Notes under the pieces: model-generated
The model's input: the letters and a program-made list of their open reading frames with translations, nothing else
Told to the model about the DNA's origin: nothing
The model's database searches: none
Translations under genes and position numbers: made by a program
In this document: positions 4,319-60,100 of the stretch, in pieces
Layout: every line of letters begins with the position of its first letter
Numbering within the stretch: the stretch's first letter is position 1
Assembly (NCBI GenBank): GCA_947646415.1
Contig: CANSGN010000001.1
Span: forward strand, 3,945-67,944
Direction of reading: 5' to 3'
Source: an uncultured Clostridia bacterium
GTDB lineage: Bacteria > Bacillota > Clostridia > Christensenellales > UBA3700
DNA length: 64,000 bases

Positions 4319-4353
4319 TAAGGTTTATTAATATTTTTATAAGGAGATTGACC

Positions 4354-4599
4354 ATGGAAGATAAGAATGTAAAACGCCCTGTAAAGAAAATGCCAAGGAA
4401 AAAGGTTTGTGTTTTCTGTGTTGAAAAAATTGACGAGTTAGACTATAAGGATGTAGCTAAACTTAAGAAATTTATCACAGAAAAAGGAAAAATCCTTCCA
4501 AGAAGAATGAGCGGTGTATGTGCTAAACATCAAAGAATGGTAGCTACTGCTGTTAAAAGAGCAAGAGTTATGGCACTAATTCCATACAGAGCTGACTAA
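4354..4599 (+). CDS. rpsR: 30S ribosomal protein S18
   Basis: ...KVCVFC...[32 protein letters not shown] at 4354 lies 7 nt after AAGGAG. Confidence 0.95.
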
Positions 4600-4616
4600 T
4601 AAATAAAAAATCAAAG

Positions 4617-4640
4617 TCCCACTTTATAGTGGGATTTTTT
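4617..4640 (+). terminator. intrinsic terminator of the rpsF operon
   Basis: tcccac (4617-4622) pairs with gtggga (4629-4634), followed by TTTTTT. Confidence 0.8.
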
Positions 4641-4800
4641 ATGTTCGTTTTAATTTTTTATAATACTTATTTGGATTGGACTTTTAGTGATATTTTAACA
4701 AATAGTGATTTGTGAGTATTTACTTATACTAAACAGTAATTATTTAAGCCAAAATATTTCTAATAATTGTATAATAAATAACTGACTTAAAAAATAAAAT

Positions 4801-4840
4801 ACACCCCGAAACATTGTGTTTTGGGGTGTTGCTTTTTGTG
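4801..4840. terminator. bidirectional intrinsic terminator at the cassette edge (copy 1)
   Basis: 12-bp stem acaccccgaaac / gttttggggtgt (4801-4829). T-runs flank it on both strands: tgcTTTTTgtg on +, aTTTTaTTTTTT on -. Confidence 0.75.
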
Positions 4841-4939
4841 TAAAGTTTAAAGTAGGCAAAAAGTGGTGTTCACTGCAATAATCCTGTCAAAAATCGGGAC
4901 TATTTGGGGTAAAAATTTGCCTTAAATGTAAAGTTTAGG

Positions 4940-5114
4940 TACATGGAATAAGTATATCTATGTACATATTATATATTTATTATAGGGTCATAAGTAAACT
5001 TTTGTCAACATTTAATTAAACATTTTGTAATATCTTTACAAAAAAGCTACAAAAACTTTAAAAAACTTTTCAAAAAAACTCCCATTTTGTACATAGATAT
5101 ACTTATTCTATGTA
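4940..5114. promoter_or_regulatory. candidate invertible promoter segment (copy 1)
   Basis: Left IR at 4940-4966 (tacatggaataagtatatctatgtaca) and right IR at 5088-5114 (tgtacatagatatacttattctatgta) match 26/27 as reverse complements and enclose 121 bp. On the minus strand, TTGACA (5008-5003), an 18-nt spacer and TATAAT (4984-4979) point away from the ATG at 5137. Confidence 0.6.
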
Positions 5115-5136
5115 AGCTATAAACGGAGGTTTTATT

Positions 5137-8097
5137 ATGGCAAAGATAATAAAAAGAGCGGGAATGATATTTTTTGTGTCAGTAATATCTTGTCTAATAG
5201 CTTTGGGTTGTATACTTACAATGCAAGTTGCTGAAAGCAACAATAATGGTATTGTAAATGCAGACACACAAAATAACATTTATACTAGCCAAAATAACGA
5301 GGATTATAAGACGAATTTTGATAGTACAACTTATGAAATCCCTGATGCGGAAAATGAGTTTGTCTTGGACTGTGATTGCCCGGATGGCGAGCCGTGTATG
5401 TGCGGTAATATGGAAAGTATTTGGATAAATGCAATTACAAAATCCCAAGAAACGGGTAAAAACGTCATGGTTGTTTTAGAAAGGGATTGGATTGCAAAAC
5501 TTGTAAATAATAACATGGTGTTTGGCTTAGGAGAAATTTGGAATGAAGGTCGTATTGCAATAGAGGATGGCGTCAATATAACTTTAGATTTAAACGGACA
5601 TACTATTGATAGAAAAATGACTGCTGATTTTTCAGCAGGTGTTTTAGATAGAGGTTGTGTAATTATTGTTTACGGAATTTTAAATTTAATTGACAGCAAA
5701 TACGATTCCGTAAAAATAAATAATGATTTCAATGCAATTAGAGCGTCAAAAAGCTTATTGACCGAATATTTGGAAAATTTAGAAATAGGTAGAATTACAG
5801 GTGGTTATAAAGAGACGGGTAACGGCGGAGGTGCTATTTATTGTAATGGTACACTAAATATTTATGGCGGTATGTTTACAGGTAACTATGGAACAAATGC
5901 CGGGGCAATTTACGGGGATAGCAATAGTCAGATAAATATTTATGATGGCATAGTAGCGAATAATAACGGTTATTATGTTGGTGGCGTTTATTCAAATTGC
6001 ATTTTAAACATTTATGGCGGAATTTATTTTAATAATGTCCAACTAGAGACATCGATACTTGCAACAAATCAAGGTGGGGCGGTATGTTATATGAATAAAA
6101 ATCGTGATTTTAATTTGTATGGCGGTAGATTTTTGTATAATGTCGGAAAAAATGGAGGAGGTATAAACATTGGTGCAGCGAAAAATGCAAATATATATAA
6201 TGCTACAATCGAATTTAACCAATCTGAAGTTAGTGGCGGCGGTTTAGCTATTCATCAAGTAAGTCAAACAAATATATATAATATAAAAATGGAAAATAAT
6301 ATAGCTTTGAACAGCGGCGGCGCAATTTACAGCGGTATATCAAGCATGGCATTAAATATTTACGATTGTGAAATAGACAATAATGGTGCAAGCGTGGAAG
6401 CTGGTGGTATATATACCGAGCATTCGATTAACTTATACGGTGGAAAAATTTACTCTAACAATTCAACAGGCTATGCGGGCGGAATATATAATGCTTCCTC
6501 CAATGTAGATGATTTGATACAAAAAGGATTTAATATCTATGGCGGTGTGCAAATATTTAACAATGTTACCGTACATGGTACATCCAATTTATATTTAAAG
6601 AATGACCAAAAAATATTTGTAAAAGGTGGATTGCATAATTCTGATGGCATTGCACATATAGGTGTAACACTGGCAGCAGATTACGGGGATGTGGAATTTA
6701 CATACTCAAAACTAAATAATAATTCACTAATGACTAAAGATGCGGATATGTATTTTTATTCGGATGTTAGTGGTTATTATGTAGAAACAACTACAGATAA
6801 GGAAGCCATAATGAAAGCAGGAACTCCTACATTGACCGAAATAACTTGGAGTTGGGGAGAATCCGAAGATTGCTCAACTACATCAAATTATGCAATTTTA
6901 AATTACAGTGGCAATGAGTTTACAATAACAACTTCTTTTGGGAAATTTTATAATGGTTCAGATTGGGGAATGAGTAGTTGCAATATTAAAAAAGCAGGAG
7001 AATATGTTTTTTATGTTAATGGAACTAATATAAAAAATCCTACTTTTACTTTAAAAATTGTCCCTGCTTATGTCGAGGTAGAATGGCAAAATGAGGATTT
7101 AGTTTATTCAGGATATAGTCAATCGATTCAAGCTAATTTAAAAGGTGTTTTGGGGAATGACGATTGTAGTGCTGTTGTTTCCGGCTCAGGTAAAGATGTC
7201 GGTAAATATATGAGCACTGTATCAGGATTGAGCGGAGTAGATAGTGGCAATTATCGTTTATTAAATAGTGTTTCCCAAACTTTTAACATTGTAAAAGCCA
7301 AATTGGAAAAACCAAAGGGTAGCGGCACATTTGAGTATGACGGAAGCGAAAAAGAATATATCCCAAACGGCTATAATAATGTGACAATGAATATAACAGG
7401 TAATAAAGCTACAGCAGTGGGTAATTACAATGCAACAGTATCACTAAAAGATAAGTATAACTATGTGTGGAATGACGGAGGAGTGGAAGATATAGTACTA
7501 CCATACTCAGTAACATTGACCCCACCTGTAGACGATGATGATAGTGAGTATAAGTTTATCTATATAGATAATGATGACGGAAAGCAAGTAAGAAAGACAT
7601 ACAAGCAAGGCGGCTTGGTACACGGTATAAACGATGGCGGAGTTAATGGCGGAAAATTGGTACTAGGCAATGTAAAGCCGAACACAAGTGTAAAAAGCTT
7701 TATACAAACCTTAGGATTTGAACAAAGCAAAATAACAATAAAGGATAGCAAGGGAAAGGATATATTTAAGGACGGAACCCCTGTTGATGCAAGTAAGTTT
7801 GATAACGGCAAAGAGCTAGCAGTAGGAACAGGCTGGAGTGTAGAGTACCAAAACAACGGGAATACGGAGACAATCTATATATCGGTATTAGGCGATGTGA
7901 ACGGAGATGGCAGGATAAGTGCAAGCGATGTATCCTACTTAAGACAAATAGCAAGTGACAACGCGTTATACGAAAGCTTAAGCGTGGAAAAGAAGTTAGC
8001 AAGTATGGTAATAAACAAAGGCAACGTGACAAGCGCGGATGCGGAAATAGTAAAAAATGTAATAAACAAAATGTTTGGAATAGATATTTTCTTTTAA
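5137..8097 (+). CDS. secreted repeat protein: N-terminal signal/anchor, GGxIY beta-helix repeats (Pmp-like), YDG/Ig-like modules, one C-terminal dockerin-like module
   Basis: GGAGG RBS at 5125-5129. Hydrophobic N-terminus MAKIIKRAGMIFFVSVISCLIALGC. Many GGGAIY/GGVYS...N repeats. C-terminus is LGDVNGDGRISASDVSYLRQIA...NKGNVTSADAEIV, an EF-hand-like dockerin pair. Paralog of 39596, 43252 and 57177. Confidence 0.8.
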   Translation: MAKIIKRAGMIFFVSVISCLIALGCILTMQVAESNNNGIVNADTQNNIYTSQNNEDYKTNFDSTTYEIPDAENEFVLDCDCPDGEPCMCGNMESIWINAITKSQETGKNVMVVLERDWIAKLVNNNMVFGLGEIWNEGRIAIEDGVNITLDLNGHTIDRKMTADFSAGVLDRGCVIIVYGILNLIDSKYDSVKINNDFNAIRASKSLLTEYLENLEIGRITGGYKETGNGGGAIYCNGTLNIYGGMFTGNYGTNAGAIYGDSNSQINIYDGIVANNNGYYVGGVYSNCILNIYGGIYFNNVQLETSILATNQGGAVCYMNKNRDFNLYGGRFLYNVGKNGGGINIGAAKNANIYNATIEFNQSEVSGGGLAIHQVSQTNIYNIKMENNIALNSGGAIYSGISSMALNIYDCEIDNNGASVEAGGIYTEHSINLYGGKIYSNNSTGYAGGIYNASSNVDDLIQKGFNIYGGVQIFNNVTVHGTSNLYLKNDQKIFVKGGLHNSDGIAHIGVTLAADYGDVEFTYSKLNNNSLMTKDADMYFYSDVSGYYVETTTDKEAIMKAGTPTLTEITWSWGESEDCSTTSNYAILNYSGNEFTITTSFGKFYNGSDWGMSSCNIKKAGEYVFYVNGTNIKNPTFTLKIVPAYVEVEWQNEDLVYSGYSQSIQANLKGVLGNDDCSAVVSGSGKDVGKYMSTVSGLSGVDSGNYRLLNSVSQTFNIVKAKLEKPKGSGTFEYDGSEKEYIPNGYNNVTMNITGNKATAVGNYNATVSLKDKYNYVWNDGGVEDIVLPYSVTLTPPVDDDDSEYKFIYIDNDDGKQVRKTYKQGGLVHGINDGGVNGGKLVLGNVKPNTSVKSFIQTLGFEQSKITIKDSKGKDIFKDGTPVDASKFDNGKELAVGTGWSVEYQNNGNTETIYISVLGDVNGDGRISASDVSYLRQIASDNALYESLSVEKKLASMVINKGNVTSADAEIVKNVINKMFGIDIFF

Positions 8098-26469: not shown

Positions 26470-26973
26470 GTGAAAAAGATATTTTTAAAATCAATGGTTA
26501 TATCAATGTTGATGGTTTTAATGTTGGGTATGAGTATGCTCTTTGTCGGATGTGAAGATTATGAAAATAAAGTATATGAAATTACTTTGCACCCAATACA
26601 TCCTATAACAGGCGAAGAAAGAAGTGAAGCATATATGACAATAGACAGTGAGACTTTATACGGAGATAGAGAGTTTATAGAAATAAAGTTTAAAGAAAAA
26701 GGCAAAAAAAAGTTTTTGCCAAACAAATATATATCTTTAAACGAACTAAATCATTTGGTTGATATTTATGTGTCTACATTGGACAGTGACTACAAGGAAA
26801 CAATCATGTTGCACGGGTCAATAAAATATCCAGAAAATATCCCAAAAGAAAAAGGGACATATAGAATTCAAGTTGAATTCAACAACTATACTTATGATGG
26901 ATATGGAAATATGTTGAGGCTATCGACTAAATTTGAATCCACATATATTAATTTTGGATTAAAAATAATATAA
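26470..26973 (+). CDS. small putative lipoprotein, paralog 1 of 3
   Basis: GTG start after GGGGGG/AGGA. Signal peptide ends in LFVGC (lipobox-like). 167 aa. The leader DNA is nearly identical to that at 27627. Confidence 0.7.
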   Translation: MKKIFLKSMVISMLMVLMLGMSMLFVGCEDYENKVYEITLHPIHPITGEERSEAYMTIDSETLYGDREFIEIKFKEKGKKKFLPNKYISLNELNHLVDIYVSTLDSDYKETIMLHGSIKYPENIPKEKGTYRIQVEFNNYTYDGYGNMLRLSTKFESTYINFGLKII

Positions 26974-27001
26974 TTACATTTAATTATAAGAGGAGTGACA
27001 A

Positions 27002-27088
27002 ATGTTAAAAAAGAAAAATTTAAAATACTTAAGCATGGTACTTGTTTTGGTTATGTTAATTACAATGGTTGTAATAACAGCATTATAA
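27002..27088 (+). CDS. 28-aa hydrophobic micro-ORF (possible signal-peptide remnant or small membrane peptide)
   Basis: AGGAG sits 6 nt before the ATG at 27002. Translation MLKKKNLKYLSMVLVLVMLITMVVITAL. Below the ORF-track length cut-off. Confidence 0.3.
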   Translation: MLKKKNLKYLSMVLVLVMLITMVVITAL

Positions 27089-27108
27089 AATAAAAAGGAG
27101 GATATAAT

Positions 27109-27612
27109 GTGAAGAAAATATTTTTAAAAACAATAGTTATATTAATGGTAACAGTTTTAATGTTAGGTATTAGTATGCTATTTGTGGGATGTGTAGAAGA
27201 GGAGGAAAAAGAGCCTGTATTTGAAATCAAGTTGTATGACGATAAATGGCAAGAACTAAAAAGACAAGGAGATAAAAGTTATACAAAGTATGAAGATTAT
27301 GTAGTAAAATATGACGGGACACGGAAGTTGTGTAATGCCATTGTATACAGAGACGGAAAAGAGTTTTATAGATTAGATTATAAGACAAATCCAAACTATT
27401 ATTATGATAGATGTTTAGAAGTATGTGAATATCGAAATGATTTTCATGAAGTCATTAAAGATAAAATGCCATATAAAGTAGGGGAGTATGAATTGATTTA
27501 TCAATATAGCTCCTATGGATATAGTAAAAACATAAATTATTTTGCAGGTAATCCATTGCCAATAAAGTATTATCATGATACGGAAAAAATTAAGCTAGTA
27601 ATACAAGAATAA
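27109..27612 (+). CDS. small putative lipoprotein, paralog 2 of 3
   Basis: GTG start after AGGAGG. LFVGC lipobox-like motif. Mature part VFEIKLYDDKWQELKRQG...YVVKYDGT is highly similar to the next gene. Confidence 0.75.
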   Translation: MKKIFLKTIVILMVTVLMLGISMLFVGCVEEEEKEPVFEIKLYDDKWQELKRQGDKSYTKYEDYVVKYDGTRKLCNAIVYRDGKEFYRLDYKTNPNYYYDRCLEVCEYRNDFHEVIKDKMPYKVGEYELIYQYSSYGYSKNINYFAGNPLPIKYYHDTEKIKLVIQE

Positions 27613-27626
27613 GGAGGGATAGGATT

Positions 27627-28142
27627 GTGAAAAAGATATTTTTAAAATCAATGGTTATAGTAATGTTGACAGTGTTAATGTTAGGTATTAGTATGCTATT
27701 TGTGGGATGTGTAAAAGAGGAGGAAAAAGAGCCTGTATTTGAAATCAAATTGTATGACGATAATTGGCAGGAACTAAAAAGACAAGGCAATGAAAAGTCT
27801 GCAATTTATGAAGATTATGTAGTCAAATATGATGGGACATACAAATTATGTAATGTGAAAGTTTTTAAAGATGAAAAGGAGTTTTATAGAATAGATTATA
27901 AAACAAATGGTACTTTTTATTATGAATATTTTTTGCAAATTAGAATAAGAAAAAAAGAAGATGATAGTGGGGTTTATGTGACAGGGTTTAATGATATGCC
28001 AACTGCAATAGGGGAATATGTTTTGATATGCGAATATAATTCCTATGGATATAGACATAGTCTTAATTATTTTTCGGACAATACATTCCCAGCAAAATAC
28101 TATTTGAAGAGCGAGACAGTTAACTTAATTATACAAGAATAA
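27627..28142 (+). CDS. small putative lipoprotein, paralog 3 of 3
   Basis: GTG start after AGGAGGGA. LFVGC. Tandem duplicate of 27109-27612. Confidence 0.75.
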   Translation: MKKIFLKSMVIVMLTVLMLGISMLFVGCVKEEEKEPVFEIKLYDDNWQELKRQGNEKSAIYEDYVVKYDGTYKLCNVKVFKDEKEFYRIDYKTNGTFYYEYFLQIRIRKKEDDSGVYVTGFNDMPTAIGEYVLICEYNSYGYRHSLNYFSDNTFPAKYYLKSETVNLIIQE

Positions 28143-28152
28143 GGAGAAAATT

Positions 28153-31100
28153 ATGTTAAAATACAAACAAAAAATATTAATTACGCTATTAGCGATTATT
28201 ATGTTGCTAATATGTGGCGTGATGATTTTGATTAATGCAAATATTGCGAAAGCAGAGGAAAACAGCTTTAATATAGAAGATTATACTAATAGTAATGAAT
28301 TTTACTATAATAATAGTACACGTAATATTGTAAATTATTTAGGTAATTTGTATGAGCCATATAATTTAACATACAGTGAATTACCAGATTTATACGGAAG
28401 TACAATAAAAAATTCAATAAACGGAATAATGGTTAGCGGAGATGACCCAATAGTGGGGATTGTTCCCAAAGAATTGTTAAAAAAGCCCAATCAACATTAT
28501 ACATATATGGGTAAAGAATATGGGCTTTTTGTAAAAACAGAAACGTTAGGTAATAATGTGTTATCAAATGTTATAGTTTATGATATTATTAATGATGACG
28601 ATTATGTCAAAAATAAAAGTCACATGAAATTTAGTATAAAAGTTTTGTTTCAAAGGGAATATTTGTATGTAGCAAATGCAGGGGACTATATGATAAAAAC
28701 AAGACGTTTTTTGCCTATAGTCCCGGGGGATAAAGTAATATATAAATTGAGTGAAAATATTGATACAACCTTTGTTTTACATGCACAACAGTCTGACTTG
28801 GTAATGCCAATGCCGTATTTTTTGGATAGTAATACAATGGTTTTATGTGACAGCCAACGGTATATAGTGCAAGACATTGTAAGTACAGTTGCATTATTTA
28901 ACGAGCAACACTTGAACGACGGAGACGAGGGATATAGCCCAAGGCTTGATATGGGTAAATTTATAACTCAAATAGATGGTGGTTATAAAGCAACGGTTTA
29001 TGATGTCAACGAAAAAAGCTTTTTTGAGGAACTGTTTAAAACAACTTTAATTGTAAAAGTGTGCGATGGGTTGGAATATGGCTTTGAAAAATTAGGATAT
29101 GGTGCATTGTGGGGATTGGGAGAGTTTGCTGCCGATGCTTATGATGCGTACATGGAAACAGCAGATAGATTACAACAGCTTACAAGAAATTTTACATATA
29201 TTTGCAAGGGTACAACAAGTCAAGAACAATTAGAACTTACAGGACAGTTGGCAAAATTCGGATTGTCTACACTTCAGTTTTTTAACGATGGTCAGTTTGG
29301 ACAAGGAAGCTATATGTTTTATGACGAGGGCGATTTTTACGAGGCAGATTATCAAATAGGATATACACCCGTATTGGATGAGTACAATCGATATAAGACG
29401 CCTTGGGAAGCAAGATTGGTAAGAGGATTTTCGTTAAAATTTGTTGACAGCAATGATAAATCTAATATAACAACATCTAGTGGAGTATACGATTTTTATT
29501 TAGCTGACAAAGAACATAAAGAATACTTAGGCTATCCTATTGCTAATAATACTGAGCACGTATCGATTTTGCCGGGTGGAAAAAATTTGTTGGCGTTTAT
29601 GCCTATTTTGCATTCCGGCAAATATAAATTAACTACTGTTGGTGCCAATGCACCGGTTAAATTATCTGTTAACATGGGAGGTATTGGCAGCACACAAGTA
29701 TATAACCAACATTTTGAAAATATAAATGAAAATGATATAGTTTTTGAGTTTGAAATTAAACAAGGGTCTATTTATGTTTTTGAGGTGCAATTTTTGGATA
29801 AACTACAGCAAGGTAATTTTGATGTTACATTGGAGTTTGTTCCTCAGGAATTGACTTGGGGAAATAATGAGGTATATGTTGATAATTTGCATGAAAGTTA
29901 TAGGATATACAGCGAAAAAACTTCTTATTTGGAATCAACTGTTTCAAAACCAAATTGGGGATGTGTTTTATATGATAAAAATTTAAAACAAATTTCTGAT
30001 TATAGATCGCTTAACAAAGATGAGTATCATTATATTCGTGTCGGAAGAGATTTTAATGTGGATTCTGCAGTGACTATTAATTTAAGACAGTATATAAACA
30101 TAAAATTAGAAAATATTGATAATATAGATAAATATTTATATCCATATTCAACGTATTATTTTGATTCGGATTTAGTACTTCCTACACCTACCAAAAACGG
30201 GTATGAATTTGAAGGATGGTGGACAAGCGTATATGATTTTGGAGAGTTGGTAACAAGTGAAAATATCGAAGATTTTGATGTAAGAGATATTACCTTATAT
30301 GCAAAATGGAAATCCATAACCTACAATGTACGGTATGTAACTAATGGTGGTAGCGGGATAGAAATGGATACCTACATATCTAACAATAGTTATCAGTTGC
30401 GTACCGATACATATAAGGATGGATATGTTTTGTACGGTTGGTACGATAACCCTGAATTTACAGGCGATAGAATAGAAGTAATTGAAAAGGGAAGTGTAGG
30501 AGATAAAGTTTTTTATGCAAGGTGGATAAAAAATGAATTTATAGTAACTCTTGACATTAACAAAAGTGCGACCGAGAATGTTGAAGCGCAGTTAGACACT
30601 AAGACGATTTTTGTAAATTATAATAACTATTTTACTCTTCCTGTGCCACGCATTGATGAATACGATTTTGATGGTTGGTATTATGGGGATATACAAATAA
30701 CCAATAAAAACGGAGAAAGTTATAGCAAGTTTACTTTTGAGCAAGATATTGAGTTGACTGCAGGTTGGACAAGAAATACATTCTTTATTTGTATGAATGA
30801 CGACGGCAACATACTATGGCTTGCAAAAGAAAACGGCGAGTACTATTTTACGGATAAAATTGCCGGCTTGAAAAAAGAAGATGAAATGTGCCCGAGTTGT
30901 TACATAAAATCACAATTACAGAACAATTCGGGCAGTGAATATACAAAAAATATAAAGGGACAACTGTTTAAGTCAGGACATATTTATAGGACAATGGCTT
31001 TAGAGCCTAAAAAAATAATTAGGGGCGAAGAGTTTGACGAGAACTTATGTTGTTGGAAACTTATTAACTTTATCCAAAACAATAAAAATAAGATAATTAA

Positions 31101-33117
31101 TATTTATCCTGTTTATGAGTTAGAAAGTTATACCGTAATGTTTGATATGAATGACAATTCGCAAGATATCGTAACAAAAACAGTTTATTATGGCGATAGT
31201 ATGACTCAATTTGAAATACCAACTAAGTTAGGTTATACTTTTGAAAATTGGGTAGTAAAAAACTTTGCAAATTATTATACAGAATATGGGTATGTTGCAA
31301 AAAATTTCCCTGCAGGGTTTATATTCCCTCAGGAAATGCCAGATTTAACAGCAGGAATTGAAAATTTTGTTCAACCTAGCATTATGTTAGCACCAAAATA
31401 TTTATCCAATGAGTATACGGTTAGATTTGCAGGAGAAAATATCTATTTTGATGCTAAAAAAGTACTTTTTGGCAAGAGCTATAGTAATAATGATAGAAAT
31501 GCTTTTCCGATTCCAATGAAAACCGGTTATTATTTTGATGGTTGGTACAGTGGAACAAACGGAACAGGTAAAAAAGTCGTGAACGAGTATGGTGCTATTG
31601 ACAGTTGGAATATTGCTAACGATTGTACTTTGTATGCATACTTTACGCCGATTCACTATCAAATGAGATTTGATTTTTGCGGTGGTAACGGAGATGTAAG
31701 TGCATTGGAAGTAATTTTTGACCAACCTTTACCTAATACTATTGCACCGACTAGGACAGGGTATACATTTGCAGGTTATTTTGATAGAACTGATGGTAAC
31801 GGAACTCTATACTATAATCAAAATATGGTTGGAATGATGACTTGGACAAATACGGAAAGTAAAACGCTTTATGCACATTGGACGGCAAATACTTATACAG
31901 TTAATTTAAACAATCAAGGTGGTAACGGCGGGGATGTACAGTTTACAGTAACCTACGGACAACCATTGCCGGATAATTTAGAAGCACCGTCAAAAATGGG
32001 AAATTATTTTAGAGGTTATTATTCCGATTATGATGGTCGCGGTACGTATTATTTGGATAGTACAATGAAATCAATGAATAATTGGGCTATAGCTCACGAC
32101 ACTACATTATATGCTAAATGGGAAGTTCGTTATTTAAACATAACAGTAAGATATGAGTATGTGGAAGACGATGTATTTAAAACATTAGCAACAAGAGATA
32201 TTGTACTTGCAGGAGATGAAACACTTTACTTTGATGCTCCTGTATATGAGGGATTTACGTTTGAAAAGTGGAGGGCACATGGCAGTGACAGCAAAGATTT
32301 ATCACAAGTTCCACGAAAAGTATTAGCACAAGCAGAAACTTCTAATGCTATATCAATAAATTTTGATTATTACAAAAAACTTATGAATTATAGGTACCTA
32401 TTCTTATGTGCTCACTATCAAAAAAATAACTGCATAGCAGAGGGCTCAATGATAACTCTTGCCGATGGTAGTCAAAAGGCTGTTGAAGATTTGACAGGAA
32501 ACGAACAATTATTGGTTTGGAACTTGATGACAGGAAAATTTGATACTGCACCTATTTTGTTTATTGATAGTGACTCCGAAAGTAAATATCAAGTTGTCAA
32601 CTTGCATTTTTCGGACGGAACTATCGTTAAAGTAATTTCCGAACATGCTTTTTGGGATTTTGATTTGAACAAATATGTTTTTTTAAGGAGTGACGCAGAT
32701 AAATATATCGGGCATTGGTTTAACAAACAAATAACCAATAGTAATGGCGATATGGCTTGGACAAAGGTGCAGTTGACAAATGTGCAAATTACAAGTGAAA
32801 AAACGAGGGCTTTTAGTCCTGTTACATACAGCCATTTGTGTTATTATGTCAATGGAATGCTTTCAATACCCGGTGCTACCGAGGGGTTGATTAACATTTT
32901 TGAAGTTGACAGTCAAACAATGCAGATAGATATCGAAAAATTTAATGCTGATATTGAAAGATATGGTTTATACAGTTATGAGGAGTTTTCTCAAATCGTA
33001 CCTGTCACTGAAGAAGTATTTAATGCTTTTAACGGACAATATTTGAAAGTTGCTATTGGAAAAGGCTTAACAACAATAGAAAAACTTCAAAATTTAGTCG
33101 CAGTTTATTTTAATTAA
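28153..33117 (+). CDS. 1654-aa secreted/anchored protein: unknown N-terminal region, about 8 Listeria/Bacteroides-type (Flg_new-like) repeats, C-terminal Hint (intein-like) domain plus 68-aa tail
   Basis: N-terminal TM/signal segment ILITLLAIIMLLICGVMILI. Repeats of the GY.F.GWY...G type (GYEFEGWW, GYVLYGWYDNPEFTG, GYYFDGWYSGTNGTG, GYTFAGYFDRTDGNG and others) span about 30170-32290. The Hint-like block starts at Cys1427 (32431): CIAEGSMITLADGSQKAVEDL...VISEHAFW... Confidence 0.8.
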   Translation: MLKYKQKILITLLAIIMLLICGVMILINANIAKAEENSFNIEDYTNSNEFYYNNSTRNIVNYLGNLYEPYNLTYSELPDLYGSTIKNSINGIMVSGDDPIVGIVPKELLKKPNQHYTYMGKEYGLFVKTETLGNNVLSNVIVYDIINDDDYVKNKSHMKFSIKVLFQREYLYVANAGDYMIKTRRFLPIVPGDKVIYKLSENIDTTFVLHAQQSDLVMPMPYFLDSNTMVLCDSQRYIVQDIVSTVALFNEQHLNDGDEGYSPRLDMGKFITQIDGGYKATVYDVNEKSFFEELFKTTLIVKVCDGLEYGFEKLGYGALWGLGEFAADAYDAYMETADRLQQLTRNFTYICKGTTSQEQLELTGQLAKFGLSTLQFFNDGQFGQGSYMFYDEGDFYEADYQIGYTPVLDEYNRYKTPWEARLVRGFSLKFVDSNDKSNITTSSGVYDFYLADKEHKEYLGYPIANNTEHVSILPGGKNLLAFMPILHSGKYKLTTVGANAPVKLSVNMGGIGSTQVYNQHFENINENDIVFEFEIKQGSIYVFEVQFLDKLQQGNFDVTLEFVPQELTWGNNEVYVDNLHESYRIYSEKTSYLESTVSKPNWGCVLYDKNLKQISDYRSLNKDEYHYIRVGRDFNVDSAVTINLRQYINIKLENIDNIDKYLYPYSTYYFDSDLVLPTPTKNGYEFEGWWTSVYDFGELVTSENIEDFDVRDITLYAKWKSITYNVRYVTNGGSGIEMDTYISNNSYQLRTDTYKDGYVLYGWYDNPEFTGDRIEVIEKGSVGDKVFYARWIKNEFIVTLDINKSATENVEAQLDTKTIFVNYNNYFTLPVPRIDEYDFDGWYYGDIQITNKNGESYSKFTFEQDIELTAGWTRNTFFICMNDDGNILWLAKENGEYYFTDKIAGLKKEDEMCPSCYIKSQLQNNSGSEYTKNIKGQLFKSGHIYRTMALEPKKIIRGEEFDENLCCWKLINFIQNNKNKIINIYPVYELESYTVMFDMNDNSQDIVTKTVYYGDSMTQFEIPTKLGYTFENWVVKNFANYYTEYGYVAKNFPAGFIFPQEMPDLTAGIENFVQPSIMLAPKYLSNEYTVRFAGENIYFDAKKVLFGKSYSNNDRNAFPIPMKTGYYFDGWYSGTNGTGKKVVNEYGAIDSWNIANDCTLYAYFTPIHYQMRFDFCGGNGDVSALEVIFDQPLPNTIAPTRTGYTFAGYFDRTDGNGTLYYNQNMVGMMTWTNTESKTLYAHWTANTYTVNLNNQGGNGGDVQFTVTYGQPLPDNLEAPSKMGNYFRGYYSDYDGRGTYYLDSTMKSMNNWAIAHDTTLYAKWEVRYLNITVRYEYVEDDVFKTLATRDIVLAGDETLYFDAPVYEGFTFEKWRAHGSDSKDLSQVPRKVLAQAETSNAISINFDYYKKLMNYRYLFLCAHYQKNNCIAEGSMITLADGSQKAVEDLTGNEQLLVWNLMTGKFDTAPILFIDSDSESKYQVVNLHFSDGTIVKVISEHAFWDFDLNKYVFLRSDADKYIGHWFNKQITNSNGDMAWTKVQLTNVQITSEKTRAFSPVTYSHLCYYVNGMLSIPGATEGLINIFEVDSQTMQIDIEKFNADIERYGLYSYEEFSQIVPVTEEVFNAFNGQYLKVAIGKGLTTIEKLQNLVAVYFN

Positions 33118-33861: not shown

Positions 33862-34221
33862 ATGGAAATTAAAGAGAAAATTAGAGATATTATGATTGAA
33901 AGAGGTTATACTATTTATTCTTTATCTAAGGCAACTGAATTATCTCAAACTAGTATTGCAAATTGGTTTAATAAAGTTAACAACGAGCCTAGTATTTCCG
34001 CATTGGAAAAAGTTTGTAAGGCGTTTGATATTACTATGGCAGAGTTGTTCGCAAAAGATAGCGACACTTTATTGCCGTGCAAGGAGGAATTTAGAGATAT
34101 TTACAACAAACTATTAAGGTTGACACCTAAACAAAGGCATGCAGTGCTGGTACATATTGATAGTTATTTATATGCAAATAACCGAAAAACATCTAAAGAT
34201 GTAAATTGCTCGGATGTTTGA
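33862..34221 (+). CDS. XRE-family helix-turn-helix transcriptional regulator
   Basis: ...YTIYSLSKATELSQTSIANWFNK...SISALEKVCKAFDITMAELF is a classic HTH_3 pattern. Confidence 0.8.
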   Translation: MEIKEKIRDIMIERGYTIYSLSKATELSQTSIANWFNKVNNEPSISALEKVCKAFDITMAELFAKDSDTLLPCKEEFRDIYNKLLRLTPKQRHAVLVHIDSYLYANNRKTSKDVNCSDV

Positions 34222-34268
34222 TATTTACTTTATTTAGCAAACATTAATTTTACAAGAGGGTTAACAGA

Positions 34269-34988
34269 ATGATTAACATAGCGATTTGCGATGACGATAA
34301 AACAATTATAGATACAATTTATAATGAGATACATACTATTGACCTTGATGGTGTTAAATTGAATGTCAGTACTTTTTTAGACGGCAATGATTTATTAAAA
34401 GCTTACAAAACTTCGGGGCAATTTAATATTGTTTTTATGGATATCGAGATTGGTGGCAGCAACGGCATTGAAATTATAGAGGAAATTCGCCGTTTTGATT
34501 CGGAGGTAATTGTCATTTTTGTGACAAGCTATCCTTATTATGTAGTAAAAGCGTTGCGTGTAGGAGCTTTTCAGTATTTAACAAAACCAATAGTACTAAG
34601 TGATTTGAAAAAAGATTTTATAAGAGCGGTCAATGTTTATAATAGTAAATACAGCGATTATAGATTTCAATCGAATGGCAATATCATAGTAAAACGCATT
34701 ATTGACATTTATGCAATAGAAGTTAAAAATAAAAAGATGTATGTTTATTTAGGCGATAAGATTTACGAGGAAGATGTTAGGTCGTCGCTAAAAGAAAAAG
34801 AGGATAAGTTTATCACACATCATTTTGTAAAATGCCATAAAAGTTATATGGTTAATATGTGGAAGATAAGTGAAATAAAAAAGGATGATATAATTTTGAA
34901 AAACGGTTACAGCATACCATTAAGTAGAAATTTTAGAAACTTTGTACTAGAAAAATTTAATGTTTTTATATCGAGGCAAAAAATATGA
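34269..34988 (+). CDS. LytTR-family response regulator (AgrA-like)
   Basis: Receiver domain MINIAICDDD...FMDIEI..., C-terminal LytTR-like part ...FVKCHKSYMVN...SIPLSR. 239 aa. Confidence 0.85.
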   Translation: MINIAICDDDKTIIDTIYNEIHTIDLDGVKLNVSTFLDGNDLLKAYKTSGQFNIVFMDIEIGGSNGIEIIEEIRRFDSEVIVIFVTSYPYYVVKALRVGAFQYLTKPIVLSDLKKDFIRAVNVYNSKYSDYRFQSNGNIIVKRIIDIYAIEVKNKKMYVYLGDKIYEEDVRSSLKEKEDKFITHHFVKCHKSYMVNMWKISEIKKDDIILKNGYSIPLSRNFRNFVLEKFNVFISRQKI

Positions 34989-36289
34989 ATGTAGTTTTTG
35001 TTATAGTAAAGATATTAAGTGTTATAATGGAGCTTTTTATTGTTGATTTTGTTTTTCGGTCACTTAGGGAAAACAGGCTGGATAAAATAAAAAGATTTTT
35101 GATATACGGCACTTTTATTATTGTTCGCTCTGTGGCGATTTGTTTTATAAATTTTACAATTATCAATTTACTGATTTCTTTTACTAATTGCTTTTTAATA
35201 TCCCTGTTTTACAAAATAAAATGGTTTAAAAGAGTTCTTGTTACTATTGCAATGACCTTAGGTTTTGTGTTGACTGAAATGTTGGTGGGTTTGATTGTAA
35301 GTAGCTTGACAAGTGCCTCTATTGTGGAAATTCAGTCAAATGTTGTGTTTTTTATAGAAAGTGTATTATGCTCCAAATTGGTAATGATGATTTTTGCGCA
35401 AGCAGTGCGATTGATTATCCGCAAAGATAGTTCTAAATTGTCCGTTGGTATGTATGCGGCACTATTTATTATGCCTGTTGCTACCTGCTTTATTGTGTTT
35501 GCAGCTTCCGAAGTTATTTATAAAAACAACGATTTGTATTTAACGATTATAATGATAGTAGGTGTGATAAGCATTTTAATCGCGAACTATATTTTGATGT
35601 ATGTTGCGGAGAAAAACGTCAAGCAAATCGTGGATGAGGCTACAAATGAGTTTTTAAAGCAAGAGCTTGTCCAACAACACAAATATTATGAAGATTTAAT
35701 ATCAAAATATAAATTCAATAATAAAAAAATACATGATATCGACAAACAACTGTTGGTATTAAACAGTATGATAAATGCTAACGGGTTTGAAAATGCAGGA
35801 CAAGAATTGTTAAAAGTCAATCAAATAGTCGAGGGCGCAAAAAGTATTGGATATACGGGTATAGCATCCATAGATGCTTTGCTTAATAACATAGAGGATA
35901 AAAGTAAGCAATATAATATACAATTTAAAAAGCATATTTTTATTGATGAAATTGTAAAAACAAACGAAATGGATTTTTGTTTGCTACTAGGTAATTTGCT
36001 TGATAATGCCATTGAAGAGTGTTTAAGATTAATTGAGGAAAATAAAACAGATTTATTTATGATATGCGACATCAAAAAGGTAGATAACTACCTAAATATA
36101 GTAGTAGAAAATTCGTGTAGGGAAAAGGAGACCTTAACTACTTCCAAATCAAATAAATATAAACACGGATACGGGTTGCATATTATTGACGAGATTGTGC
36201 AAAAATTTGACGGCAGCATAAAAAGAGAAAGAATTGACGGCGTGTTTACTACAATGATAATATTAAACACACATGTTAGGGCAGTATAA
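34985..36289 (+). CDS. AgrC-like membrane sensor histidine kinase (GHKL, HPK10 type)
   Basis: About 6 N-terminal TM helices, H-box KKIHDIDKQL, N-box GNLLDNAIEE, G-box HGYGLHIIDEIV. Start overlaps the regulator's stop. Confidence 0.85.
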   Translation: MNVVFVIVKILSVIMELFIVDFVFRSLRENRLDKIKRFLIYGTFIIVRSVAICFINFTIINLLISFTNCFLISLFYKIKWFKRVLVTIAMTLGFVLTEMLVGLIVSSLTSASIVEIQSNVVFFIESVLCSKLVMMIFAQAVRLIIRKDSSKLSVGMYAALFIMPVATCFIVFAASEVIYKNNDLYLTIIMIVGVISILIANYILMYVAEKNVKQIVDEATNEFLKQELVQQHKYYEDLISKYKFNNKKIHDIDKQLLVLNSMINANGFENAGQELLKVNQIVEGAKSIGYTGIASIDALLNNIEDKSKQYNIQFKKHIFIDEIVKTNEMDFCLLLGNLLDNAIEECLRLIEENKTDLFMICDIKKVDNYLNIVVENSCREKETLTTSKSNKYKHGYGLHIIDEIVQKFDGSIKRERIDGVFTTMIILNTHVRAV

Positions 36290-36357
36290 ATACGCGTTAG
36301 GACAAAAGTATTTGAAAACTTAATAAAACATGTTATTGTATACTAAAGGAGGCTTTA

Positions 36358-36948
36358 ATGCTTAAATTTCTATCGCATAAGATGACATGCTTTTTTATTA
36401 GAAAAAATGTAATTGAGCAATCTGAAGAAGAAACCTATGATTACTGTTTTGAAATATTACTTTCAACTTTAATGAATTTATTTTCAATTATTATAATTGC
36501 CGTTTGCACCCAAACATATCTATCAAGTTTTTTATTTATCGTTATTTTTATGATTATGCGTTCTTTGTCAGGTGGTTATCACGCTGACACCCATTTCAGA
36601 TGTTTTTTAATATTGTTGTTTGTTTATTCCGGTTTGATATTGTCTATTAAATTTTTACCAAATGTTTTTTTTATAAGCCTTATTTTTAATGTTTTTTCTT
36701 TAATTCTGTATCCAATATTAGCACCGGTAGAGCATTATAATAATCCTATGGATAAAATCAAAAAAAGAAAGTTGAAAGTCAAAAGCATATTAGCCTCTCT
36801 TATAATTATATGCGCAAGCAGTGTAATGGTATTTTTTACTCCGACCGAAATTATAGGTTTCACTATGGCATATACCAATTTTGTCGTAGTCATATCATGT
36901 CTTTTTTCGGTATTTAAAAACAAATTATTACATAATAAGGCAGGATAA
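36358..36948 (+). CDS. agrB: AgrB-like accessory gene regulator B (autoinducing-peptide maturation protease)
   Basis: Polytopic, 196 aa, with the conserved motif RSLSGGYHADTHFRC (catalytic His/Cys spacing as in AgrB). AAGGAGG RBS. Confidence 0.8.
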   Translation: MLKFLSHKMTCFFIRKNVIEQSEEETYDYCFEILLSTLMNLFSIIIIAVCTQTYLSSFLFIVIFMIMRSLSGGYHADTHFRCFLILLFVYSGLILSIKFLPNVFFISLIFNVFSLILYPILAPVEHYNNPMDKIKKRKLKVKSILASLIIICASSVMVFFTPTEIIGFTMAYTNFVVVISCLFSVFKNKLLHNKAG

Positions 36949-49046: not shown

Positions 49047-49141
49047 TAAATTAATAAAGAAAAAATAAAAAACCTTACAAAAATCGGGTTTAAAATAAAA
49101 AACAAGCATAAAAATGCAAATAAACTTAAGGAGAATTAATT

Positions 49142-56840: not shown

Positions 56841-56880
56841 GCACCTCAAAACAATTTGTTTTGGGGTGTTACTTTTTGTG
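56841..56880. terminator. bidirectional terminator hairpin of cassette 4
   Basis: gcacctcaaaac / gttttggggtgt (56841-56869) with T-runs on both strands. Confidence 0.65.
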
Positions 56881-56979
56881 TAAAGTTTAAAGTAAGTAAA
56901 AAGTGGTGTTCACTGCAATAATCCTGCCAAAAATCGGGACTATTGGGGTTGAAATTTTGTCATTAATGTAAAGTTTGGG

Positions 56980-57154
56980 TACATGGAATAAGTATATCTA
57001 TGTACATATTATATGTATATTTTAAACTAAAATGTAAGATAATGTCAACGTTATAGCAAAGGTTTTGTAAACTCTTTACTTTAAGCATACAAAAATTATA
57101 TATTCAAACTCAAAAAATCCGTGATTTTGTACATAGATATACTTATTCTATGTA
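56980..57154. promoter_or_regulatory. candidate invertible promoter segment (copy 4)
   Basis: Left IR at 56980-57006 and right IR at 57128-57154 enclose 121 bp. On the minus strand, TTGACA (57048-57043), 18-nt spacer, TAAAAT (57024-57019). Confidence 0.6.
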
Positions 57155-57176
57155 AGGAAAAAACGGAGGTTTTATT

Positions 57177-60100
57177 ATGACAAAACATGCACGAAAGGCA
57201 GGGAAAATAATTTTTGTATTAGTAATTTCCTTTCTGTTAATAATGGGATGTTTATTTGCATCCGACGTGATAAAGGATAAAACTGATAACACAAATTTGG
57301 ATAATATGGCAAAGGATGTGCAAACAACTGCGGATGTGACATACACTCTGCCAGGCAGTTATTCGGAAAATGTTCGTATATGGAATGAGGCGATAGATTA
57401 CGCACTTGCAAATACCTCTTCAAATGTTTTGGTAAAATTAAATGGGAATTGGACCGCAACAACTCATGCTACTTTTGGTACAACATTTGGTGGTGGTAGT
57501 GGTTTTAGCAATGGAAGAATTTATATCCCTAAAAAAGCAAATGTAATTTTAGATATAAATGGAAAAACAATAAATAGAAATTTAACTTCGTCCAATGCTA
57601 ATGGGTCAGTTATTTATGTGCATGGAACTTTAAGAATTATTGACAGTGGGTTTGTTTCTAATACAATTTATGATTTAGACGATGCAATGGCTCTTAATAT
57701 TAAAAGTGGACAAATAACAGGCGGTTATACTACTTATGGTGGCGGAATTTATATTGACGGCGGTAAATTTTATATGTATCAAAGTGCTATTTTTGCAAAT
57801 AAGGCAACAGATGCCGCAGGTGTGTTTGTTACAAATAGCGGAGAAGTTAATGTCTACGATGGTATAATACTAAAAAATATCGCTTCTCGTACCGGTGGCG
57901 GTATATGTAGTTTAAATAGTTCTAAGATTAATGTGTATGGAGGACATATATTCCAAAATACGGCGACACATAGCGGTGGCGGTATTTATGGATATGAGGA
58001 ATGTATAAGAATTTACGGTGGTAAAATTTCTTATAACAAAGCAGGGGTTGCAGGTGGAGGAGTTGGATTAGCTAATTCTGCAAATAGCAGCAAAAAGGCA
58101 ATAATTAATAATTGCATATTTAGTCATAACAAAGCATATTCTGGTACAACGGTTGAAACTATTGGTGGTGCAATCAATGCAAATGCTGCGACAGTTGATT
58201 TGGACGGAGTGGAAATAAAAAATAATGAGGCAGATTCAGGCTCCGCAATAGGTGATGTTAGTAATAAAATTACTCTAAAAAACTGCATAATAACTAACAA
58301 TAAAGCAACTACTTCTGATGGATATGCCGTACAATTACATGATTATGCAGAAAATGGCGTGTACTTATCTTGCGGCAATAATGTTATAATCAACAATAAT
58401 GTTAATTCTGAAAACGATTCTTATAATATACATAACGAAAAAAATGTTTGGATAGAAATTTATAAACACGATATAGAATTATTTGAATATGCACCTAGTA
58501 GTCGTATTAGTATTTCTACAGAACCTTATTCAACTAGTAGCCCCGTTGAATTTATATCATATTACAATATTAGTGATTCAAAAAACGATTTCAAAACTAT
58601 ATCATCGATTTTTCATAATGATGCAGATGGTGTAAAGAATGGAAGTACCATTCAGGCGTATGGTCCAGGACAGTCATATAGATTTTCAGAAATGCCTACA
58701 ACTAATAGTGATATATATGGCGGAGGTGTATATTGGAGAGTAAATGGCGAAAATAACGATGAAATTCATGATAATACAATAAATTACAAGGAAGTACCTT
58801 ATACAGGTGAGGATTATACAGTAGAATTTTGCAGTTATCACAATTTCAGCAATTTAAATTACAACATATATTCTCCATCTAGTGGTGGTATTGATGGAAT
58901 GTGTGGTGTTACAGCTAGAGTTAGAAATGCTGGTATATATGTTTTTACTGCCGATAGAATACTTGACGGGTATTTTGTAAAGAATAGAGGCTCTTTCATT
59001 TTGAGAATTGTTCCAAAACAAGTAACATCAATGGCATGGGGAACTGACACAGCTGTTTATGACACATCGGCGCATAAAGTATCTTTGACATTGTATGATT
59101 CAGGCGTGTATTTTAATACAGATGTTCAAACTCTATTGGGCGGAAAAAATGTAGGGACAGGAATTAATTTTGCTACTAATGAAATTTCAAATAAAAATTT
59201 CAAACTGCCATTGTGGAATAGGGTAAAAACATTTACTATAACTCCAAGATATTTGGATAGACCAACGATAAAAAGTGGTACGGGAAGTACATTTACCTAT
59301 GACGGTACACAACATCAACTGCAGTTAAATAATTATAATACAACTTACCTAACCGGTTTACAATCATATACCGATGCGGGATGGCATGAAACTAAAATAT
59401 CAATAAAATCTCCTGGGAATTGCTATTGGAAAACTACAACAGGTAGTTCAAGTGGAACGGATACGGCAGATATAACCTTTATGATGGAAATATTACGAAA
59501 ACCAATAGAAAAACCAATATTAGGAGATAATGAGTTTATATATACAGGTCAAGAAATAACATTTCTTCCTGACGGTTTTGACGCATCGCAAATGGAAATA
59601 ACGGGTAATAAAAATACCAATGTAGGAGAGTATACGGCAAAAGTTAAGGCTAACTCCAACCACTATTGGAGTGATATTAGTTCAACTCAAGAAATATCAT
59701 TTGAATATAGAATAATCCCACCAGGTATTGCAGTAAAAAGTGGAGTGGATTATGACTATCAGTATATAGACAGCAATAATATTCGAACAAATTATTTAAA
59801 AAATTATATGCACAAATGGGATGATGGAACTTTGAATTTAGTAAATGGTCAACCAAGGCATGTATTGGGCAATATTCCTTTAAATACTAGTGTAGAAACT
59901 TTTTTACAAAATTTGTATAATGATAGAAATTTGATAAAGATATATGCAAATGAAAGTAATCTAAACATAATATATGACGGTTTACTAGGTGTAAGGGATA
60001 ATTTAAGCCAAACTTTAGCCACAGGCAATAAAGTAGAATTGTATAATAATAATGGCGAAAAAACAGACACAATTTATTTATCTATACTAGGAGACATAAA

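Follow-up and report, generated by a model that had tools for sequence, protein, structure and literature searches.

Promoter inversion as a means of phase variation is well known from Bacteroides, Escherichia coli and Clostridioides difficile; to our knowledge, it has received very little study in the AT-rich, uncultured Clostridia (labelled Christensenellaceae) frequently found in the guts of rodents. We analyzed 64,000 nucleotides (nt) of an uncultured Clostridia genome (GCA_947646415.1, contig CANSGN010000001.1, positions 3,945-67,944 of the forward strand), hereafter the window, in which four near-identical units each place a pair of inverted repeats (IRs) around a short intergenic segment directly upstream of a gene for a secreted, dockerin-bearing protein. 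We propose that each of these loci is an invertible-promoter switch (inverton) flipped by a site-specific recombinase encoded in trans, a reading to which we assign a probability of about 0.82.

Three described systems are the closest points of comparison. In fimS of E. coli, a short IR-flanked segment carrying the promoter of a surface-structure gene is inverted by the tyrosine recombinases FimB and FimE, which sets expression ON or OFF. fimS is a single locus with 9-bp IRs, a 314-bp segment and adjacent recombinase genes, whereas the system described here has 27-bp IRs, a 121-bp segment and more than 20 loci per genome, its recombinase is proposed to act in trans, and the candidate enzyme falls outside the FimB/E subfamily. 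In Bacteroides fragilis, the trans-acting master invertase Mpi serves many dispersed promoters that share one IR consensus, varying the surface of a gut commensal (PMC5903667). The sharing of one IR by many loci is found here as well. However, Mpi is a serine recombinase and the enzyme linked to our switches is a tyrosine recombinase, the cargo consists of paralogous dockerin-bearing proteins instead of polysaccharide operons, the host is a Clostridia-class Firmicute, and each switch has an additional fixed block of 110 nt and a hairpin of its own. The system thus works like that of Mpi without being a member of the Mpi-type serine invertase systems. In C. difficile, the trans-acting tyrosine recombinase RecV serves several sites (cwpV, flgB, cmrRST and others), with at least one cell-wall protein gene among its targets (PMC5903667). 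The Clostridia host and the use of one trans-acting tyrosine recombinase, here a candidate, for several sites are comparable; C. difficile, in contrast, has 7 sites with mostly unrelated IRs, against more than 20 sites with near-identical IRs, and cwpV is regulated downstream of a fixed promoter, whereas here the promoter lies inside the segment. In function, the proposed switches are invertible promoters of the fimS type, deployed as widely as in the regulons of Mpi or RecV. They represent classical flip-to-express phase variation, notable for its copy number and its dockerin-protein cargo. Literature searches on Christensenellaceae invertons, on dockerins with an invertible promoter, on this IR and on PhaseFinder or DeepInverton returned no description of it.

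The four IR pairs are convergent, with left and right repeats (IR-L/IR-R) starting at 4940/5088, 39399/39547, 43055/43203 and 56980/57128. With up to two mismatches allowed, the IR word occurs eight times in the window and not once in 100 dinucleotide shuffles. In copy 1, IR-L (TACATGGAATAAGTATATCTATGTACA, 4940-4966, plus strand) consists of the half-sites TACATGGA and TCTATGTA around an asymmetric centre; IR-R (5088-5114, minus strand) is its reverse complement at 26 of 27 positions and lies 121 nt away. The hexamers GTACAT (4939-4944) and ATGTAC (4960-4965) flank a 15-nt core. On the minus strand of the invertible segment (4967-5087), TTGACA (5008-5003) and TATAAT (4984-4979) are separated by 18 nt; this promoter faces away from the gene, the orientation that we call OFF. 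Downstream of IR-R, GGAGG (5125-5129) and an ATG at 5137 open a plus-strand gene (5125-8097 with its ribosome-binding site, RBS) for a protein of 986 aa that has a signal or anchor sequence at its N-terminus and a type I dockerin at its C-terminus. Upstream of IR-L lie the fixed block (4830-4939, plus strand), recognizable in the conservation profile by the words TTTTTGTGTAAAGTTT, TGCAATAAT, ATCAAAAATCGGG (4875-4898) and AATGTAAA, and a G+C-rich hairpin (4801-4829), preceded by an A-run and followed by a T-run, which forms the left boundary of the conserved unit. The alignment of the four copies is gap-free from this hairpin, which lies 139 nt before IR-L, through the start codon into the codons of the signal peptide, and the offsets of 139, 39, 63 and 197 nt (hairpin to IR, IR to -10, IR to -35, IR to ATG) are identical in 4/4 copies, with 22 nt between IR-R and ATG.

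The original prediction, made from the letters of the window, had described the complementarity of the repeats, the hexamers around the core, the minus-strand promoter, the position that this promoter would take after a flip, and the recurrence of the whole architecture at identical offsets in four copies. The repeats and hexamers hold to the base, the promoter was recovered by a consensus scan (12/12) with TAAAAT as the -10 in copies 3 and 4, and the gap-free alignment confirms the offsets. Its account of the hairpin stands in part. The hairpin does score as a terminator (13 pairs, 6 of them G-C, and a T-run), and its stem covaries across 60 distinct copies. Insulation from rpsR read-through, however, is not its only role: rpsR (4348-4599, Pfam S18), in the upstream gene order rpsF-ssb-rpsR, has a two-way terminator-like hairpin of its own at 4613-4638, 14 nt past the stop codon and separate from that of the switch, which indicates that the hairpin at 4801-4829 belongs to the repeated unit and is not simply the rpsR terminator. 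Since T/A runs are found on both of its sides, giving a T-run on the minus strand as well, the switch hairpin is probably a two-way terminator that would also end the OFF-state transcript.

To place these four copies in a wider sample, the IR core was scanned for exactly in one genome per species, yielding 52 loci, nearly all of them from mouse-gut metagenome-assembled genomes (MAGs) labelled Christensenellaceae or Christensenella (MGBC162486, MGBC121002, MGBC100798 and MGBC120187). A scan of metagenome contigs added 60 further loci. Together these comprise 81 complete switches, in which the interior measures 121 nt everywhere except in L002, L058 and L070 (122 nt). MGBC162486 holds at least 22 switches and MGBC121002 about 26, in genomes that are apparently small, which corresponds in this lineage to one switch per 15-65 kb, with four in the window. 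Given 91-97% identity at orthologous loci, the window and MGBC162486 are judged to represent the same or sibling species. The exact sequence signature can be used to find and quantify such switches in metagenomic reads.

The most direct evidence for inversion comes from a comparison of orientations, each switch being oriented by its fixed flanks. The interior lies as in the window, with the promoter away from the gene, in 80/81 complete switches, so the predicted OFF state of the four window loci is the state of nearly all of their relatives; the general metagenome scan alone contributed 33/33 complete switches in OFF, plus one ON half-junction (L088). The sole exception is L050, from MGBC121002, where TTGACA-18-TATAAT points at the gene. 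A metagenome contig of independent origin (L101) has the same locus in OFF, 98.3% identical upstream and 99.6% identical on the gene side. Compared base by base, the 200 nt upstream are identical and the downstream side differs by one coding single-nucleotide polymorphism (SNP). The interiors are exact reverse complements of each other: as assembled they give 66 mismatches, and after in-silico inversion 1 mismatch is left, the SNP. This match is regained with every breakpoint tried within the outermost 26 nt of the IRs, and a flip of the 121 nt alone leaves two extra mismatches, which places the exchange inside the IRs, with the innermost base pair travelling with the segment. This pattern reads as the signature of conservative recombination at the IRs. 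The homologous segment inverts in nature, and because both states occur at ~99% flank identity, the inversion appears to be recent. A second ON junction is found at the start of the L088 contig, which runs from the gene-side flank through the IR into the promoter end of the interior. These two cases support the IR-bounded invertible promoter of the original prediction. Both orientations at one locus were thus found for a homologous switch in a sister species, and not at the four window loci or their orthologues; for the window loci we infer the same switching.

The promoter inside the segment is what gives an inversion its predicted effect. In copies 1 and 2, the minus-strand TTGACA-18-TATAAT matches the consensus at 12/12 positions, and it is the only perfect promoter that the consensus scan returned in the region of copy 1. 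It is conserved in 66/66 distinct interiors: 53 have TTGACA-18-TATAAT, 11 have TTGACA-18-TAAAAT and one has TTGACT-18-TATAAT, with the -10 ending 11 or 12 nt from the IR in 65/66, the remaining one being L050 with its gene-facing consensus promoter. Outside the promoter, interiors differ from variant to variant and from species to species. When flipped, the -10 would stand 12 nt from IR-R and transcription is predicted to start ~5 nt before IR-R, giving a leader of ~54-55 nt with GGAGG 8 nt upstream of the ATG. At the level of sequence, then, one orientation of the segment would drive the gene; we infer that the internal TTGACA-18-TATAAT is an active promoter and, likewise, that transcription ends at the hairpin.

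Two interior types exist in the window, variant A in copies 1 and 2 and a diverged variant B in copies 3 and 4, and the same two types reveal a second kind of rearrangement. The interior of copy 1 (4967-5087) is of variant A, that of its orthologue in MGBC162486 (L030:1961-2081) is of variant B, and the flanks of both are ~95% identical. As this difference is bounded exactly by the IRs, it points to an exchange of promoter cassettes between loci. Two irregular switches were also observed. In L112:1487-1946, a G+C-richer insert of 258 nt lies between switch and gene; the IR-R sequence is repeated directly on both sides of it, which would be the outcome if a small DNA element had entered at the recombination site. 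In L084:3300-3452, the upstream block, IR-L and interior are normal and both IR-R and the RBS are missing; this switch has apparently suffered a deletion and is presumably fixed in OFF. Several contigs (L003, L006, L011, L040 and others) break at the IRs, which could have been a sign of mixed orientations; this was rejected, since all of these contigs continue with an OFF-type interior and the multicopy repeat explains the breaks. One of them, L040 (CBFGCD010000030.1, 1938 nt), is a short contig that ends at IR-L with an upstream block typical of the window's species, and its placement in a Gastranaerophilaceae MAG is probably a binning error.

The IR itself has the organization of a recombinase site. 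Across the 81 switches, which span several species, IR positions 10-26 are invariant except for position 13, while the flanks diverge. The repeat shows a dyad, with the 8-bp half-sites TACATRGA and TCTATGTA placed around 11 asymmetric bases. The suggestion that this is the layout of a recombinase dimer site gains support from distant relatives, in which the half-sites are conserved and the centre is variable. Position 13, in the centre, is G in both arms of 63 switches, A in both arms of 14 and mixed in 4; within MGBC121002 alone, the counts are 11 G/G, 9 A/A and 0 mixed. Matched arms would fit a need for identical crossover regions, or conversion during recombination, and we regard this as supportive only.

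A recombinase encoded elsewhere, as the original prediction had proposed, agrees with what was found. Neither Pfam on ~45 open reading frames (ORFs) nor phmmer with Hin, XerD and FimB queries detected a recombinase in the window, and phmmer with the Hin query detected no resolvase-like ORF of the serine recombinase type near the switches. Among the fetched loci, phmmer identified one tyrosine recombinase, a 309-aa protein of MGBC162486 (L005:6476-7405), with an orthologue in MGBC121002 (L011). It matches PF00589 (E=1e-26) and PF14659 (E=5e-13), and its translation shows GIRLGE, HSLRHTF, LGHAN and NRYAH, combining the catalytic signature of tyrosine recombinases with an N-terminal SAM-like DNA-binding domain. 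Its closest solved structure is the Tn1549 Int (6en0, E=3e-19). An assignment to the FimB/E type was rejected, the NCBIfam FimB/E model giving only E=2e-4. In two species the gene lies 1.9 kb upstream of one switch, within a conserved order (L005:2887-7405 and L011) of recombinase, metallophosphoesterase membrane protein, switch and rarA/mgsA. The junction of switch and rarA recurs in L012, L072 and L080. This rarA-side switch has no dockerin gene and is located 113-228 nt upstream of rarA.

Homologues of this protein extend the link between enzyme and site. More than 7000 were found at E<=1e-20; among the best matches listed, they are typically ~303 aa long and, beyond the closest relatives, 53-60% identical, and the few that are named come from Clostridia MAGs. 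Four independent contexts with homologues at 55-59% identity (P0023/L116-118, P0027/L119, P0074/L120-121 and P0048/L122) all present the same order: recombinase stop codon, terminator hairpin, IR pair, RBS and the ATG of a gene for a secreted or surface protein. Their IR pairs, 23-39 nt long and 87-115 nt apart, share the window's half-sites TACATAGA/TCTATGTA (for example ACATAGAATAAACTAATCTATGT in L122). The centres differ from that of the window and are identical between the two arms of each pair. Promoter-like sequence facing outward next to IR-L was seen in 3/3 interiors examined (L116, L120 and L122). These modules resemble the window's system in recombinase, half-sites, interior and the gene that follows, and they differ from it in having the recombinase gene directly upstream of a single switch, another IR centre and no 110-nt block. 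Synteny of this recombinase family with IRs was observed in six contexts in all. Because its homologues adjoin IR pairs with the same half-sites, the 309-aa tyrosine recombinase is the likely invertase, which offers a testable candidate with a defined 27-bp site of conserved half-sites and free centre. It also suggests that recombinase-plus-switch modules form a far larger family in Clostridia, one that has apparently not been described; no description of the modules L116-L122 was found in the literature.

In the mechanism that we propose, a recombinase encoded in trans, best represented by the ~309-aa protein similar to Tn1549 Int, would bind both 27-bp IRs, each of them a complete core site with its two half-sites around an asymmetric 11-bp centre, and strand exchange inside the IRs would flip the 121-bp segment. 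In the OFF state, the consensus sigma-A promoter would fire away from the gene, and its transcript would cross IR-L and the 110-nt block before stopping at the hairpin, a predicted length of ~175 nt. In the ON state, the same promoter would yield an mRNA leading through GGAGG to the ATG of the dockerin-bearing repeat protein. Since the same IR flanks at least 22-26 switches per genome, a single recombinase could vary, cell by cell, which members of the surface-complex family are made, with most switches OFF at any time.

Several points weigh against this reading. The evidence on orientation comes from consensus assemblies only. No ON copy was found in the window's species, among the 4 window copies, ~22 in MGBC162486, ~20 metagenome contigs and L123, and a 40-nt ON-specific junction of this species gave 0 matches in metagenome contigs. 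Consensus assemblies report the majority orientation only, and with one enzyme serving ~25 switches, of which any one cell has few in ON, an assembly entirely in OFF would be expected; this nevertheless stays the principal weakness of the evidence. The difference between L050 and L101 rests on two assemblies, and an assembler working at k<=26 could in principle invert such a segment. The pattern at position 13 could also result from descent from as few as one converted ancestor. The recombinase is assigned by association only, and its gene lies outside the window. Finally, the motif in the 110-nt block might act as an additional promoter that is fixed, and the OFF state may then be other than silent. 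As to individual genes, the protein of copy 3 recurs on one contig of another assembly (L123), which begins inside the interior and has the switch in OFF, and an exact look-up of the copy 1 protein in other assemblies found none on record.

The 110-nt block deserves attention in this context, as its conservation equals that of the IRs (profile of 74 switches). A role as an RNA structure was dropped when RNAalifold found no conserved structure on either strand among 67 distinct copies. An accessory or regulator binding site and a second promoter are the candidates. Its core word TCAAAAATCGG occurs on its own 41 times in ~0.9 Mb, against ~2 expected from a rough base-composition estimate, and is enriched ~20-fold in intergenic and untranslated regions of the genome. 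The word (T)CAAAAATCGG of the block is present in many of the fetched loci. Within the window, it is found in the switches at 4887-4898, 39346-39357, 43002-43013 and 56927-56938, and alone at 49078(+), 54209(+) and 25524(+); one further lone copy, on the minus strand, lies inside an ORF (plus-strand 61858, reverse-strand coordinate 2134). Most lone copies lie between genes; many follow a stop codon of the same orientation at a distance of 6-65 nt, and some directly precede a terminator hairpin. Their consensus is AAAAAnCTnTCAAAAATCGGTAYTAAA, with no -35. As these copies are without a TTGACA-like -35, a sigma-A promoter was rejected for TCAAAAATCGG, and TATCAAAAATCGG was dropped as an IHF site when the TTR part of the IHF consensus remained unmatched. 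The motif may be a binding site for a regulator or for a protein that assists the recombinase, or it may serve an alternative sigma factor.

Two further ideas build on this block. In the first, the switch would be two-faced: ~25 OFF promoters would make ~175-nt RNAs antisense to TCAAAAATCGG that end at the hairpin, and the number of OFF switches would feed a genome-wide circuit, through the RNA itself or through titration of a motif-binding protein. Each flip would then silence one source of the RNA while switching one dockerin protein on, and the IRs may in addition let A and B cassettes move between loci. We consider this addition fairly unlikely. In the second, which we hold to be unlikely, the switch would be of the leader type known from C. 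difficile cwpV: a fixed promoter in the block (the TCAAAAATCGG motif or an extended -10 at TGCAATAAT) would transcribe toward the gene, and the segment would modulate read-through, with the convergent promoter or a 27-bp stem of the IRs blocking the transcript in the assembled orientation. The strong conservation of the block, the intergenic recurrence of its motif, mostly co-oriented with flanking genes, and a weak plus-strand promoter match (9/12, with TG) at 4853-4882 would suit such an arrangement, as would the pairing of IR-L with IR-R in a read-through RNA (-48.9 kcal/mol, z -5.7). However, the sole 12/12 promoter lies inside the segment and is kept in every interior, the motif on its own has no TTGACA-like -35, and the relatives with a recombinase in cis (L116-L122) dispense with the block while those inspected, L116, L120 and L122, retain promoter-like sequence in the interior. 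Neither an orientation-specific terminator in the interior nor any terminator-like site within 4940-5114 was found, so the fixed outside promoter combined with a leader terminator in one orientation that defines cwpV-type switches is not seen here.

A very unlikely alternative is that the assembled orientation is the working state, in which a conserved RNA of ~175 nt is produced from ~25 loci and inversions are rare evolutionary accidents. The predominance of this orientation (80/81), the T-run of the hairpin on the minus strand and the high conservation of the transcribed block, which is antisense to a genome-wide motif, are what it would explain. It is contradicted by the occurrence of the same locus in both states at nearly identical flanks and by the second ON junction, and it leaves without explanation an IR architecture held in common with cis-linked recombinase modules, an ON geometry well placed for -10, leader and RBS, and a block devoid of conserved RNA structure. 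It is hardly credible that the IRs take no part in DNA inversion and amount to no more than an RNA structure or a miniature transposable element (MITE). The unit is multicopy, and in a read-through RNA its IRs would pair as a stem of 27 bp, but DNA inversion is directly observed between L050 and L101, Rfam gave no match at gathering thresholds and only chance-level matches at E<=10, no consensus structure typical of a cis-regulatory RNA is present in the block on either strand, no target-site duplications were seen flanking the IRs, and the conserved unit, always at the same distance from the start codon, extends well past the IRs on either side, as far as the hairpin on the left and across the RBS into the signal-peptide codons on the right, unlike a MITE.

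Under the invertible-promoter reading, each of the remaining window copies would control another member of the same protein family. The switch of copy 2 (39260-39573) comprises a hairpin (39260-39288), block (39289-39398), IR-L (39399-39425), interior (39426-39546) and IR-R (39547-39573); its variant A interior carries the minus-strand -35 at 39467-39462 and the -10 TATAAT at 39443-39438, and the RBS and ATG (39596) of a plus-strand gene (39584-42856) for a 1086-aa dockerin protein follow. Copy 3 (42916-43229) has its hairpin at 42916-42944, block at 42945-43054, IR-L at 43055-43081, interior at 43082-43202 and IR-R at 43203-43229. This variant B interior has its minus-strand -35 at 43123-43118 and -10 TAAAAT at 43099-43094, and the plus-strand gene (43240-45465 with its RBS, ATG at 43252) encodes a 737-aa dockerin protein. 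Copy 4 (56841-57154) is built alike, with hairpin 56841-56869, block 56870-56979, IR-L 56980-57006, interior 57007-57127 (variant B, minus-strand -35 at 57048-57043, -10 TAAAAT at 57024-57019) and IR-R 57128-57154, in front of a plus-strand gene (57165-60764 with its RBS, ATG at 57177) for a 1195-aa dockerin protein.

Each of the four downstream proteins (737-1195 aa) begins with a hydrophobic signal or anchor and has a type I dockerin at its C-terminus. Across switches, the downstream genes form a paralogous family with signal sequences, and Dockerin_1 was detected in 24/41 distinct complete proteins. The family consensus shows glycine- and asparagine-rich repeats, which suggest a beta-helix. 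Each switch fronts a different member of this family of secreted repeat proteins, most of them with a dockerin; if these dockerins plug into a cohesin scaffold, a cell could vary the composition of its surface complex combinatorially.

Other genes of the window were noted alongside the switches. Switch copy 2 and the gene for a GLUG-motif protein (37301-39145) are closely preceded by an agr-like quorum-sensing cluster (33862-36948), made up of a helix-turn-helix regulator, a LytTR response regulator (34269-34988), a GHKL histidine kinase (34985-36289) and AgrB (36358-36948). Further upstream, in the region 26470-33117, three tandem plus-strand ORFs of 167-171 aa (26470-26973, 27109-27612 and 27627-28142) without a Pfam match precede the gene for a 1654-aa protein with six Listeria-Bacteroides repeats (Flg_new), a gene that has no switch.

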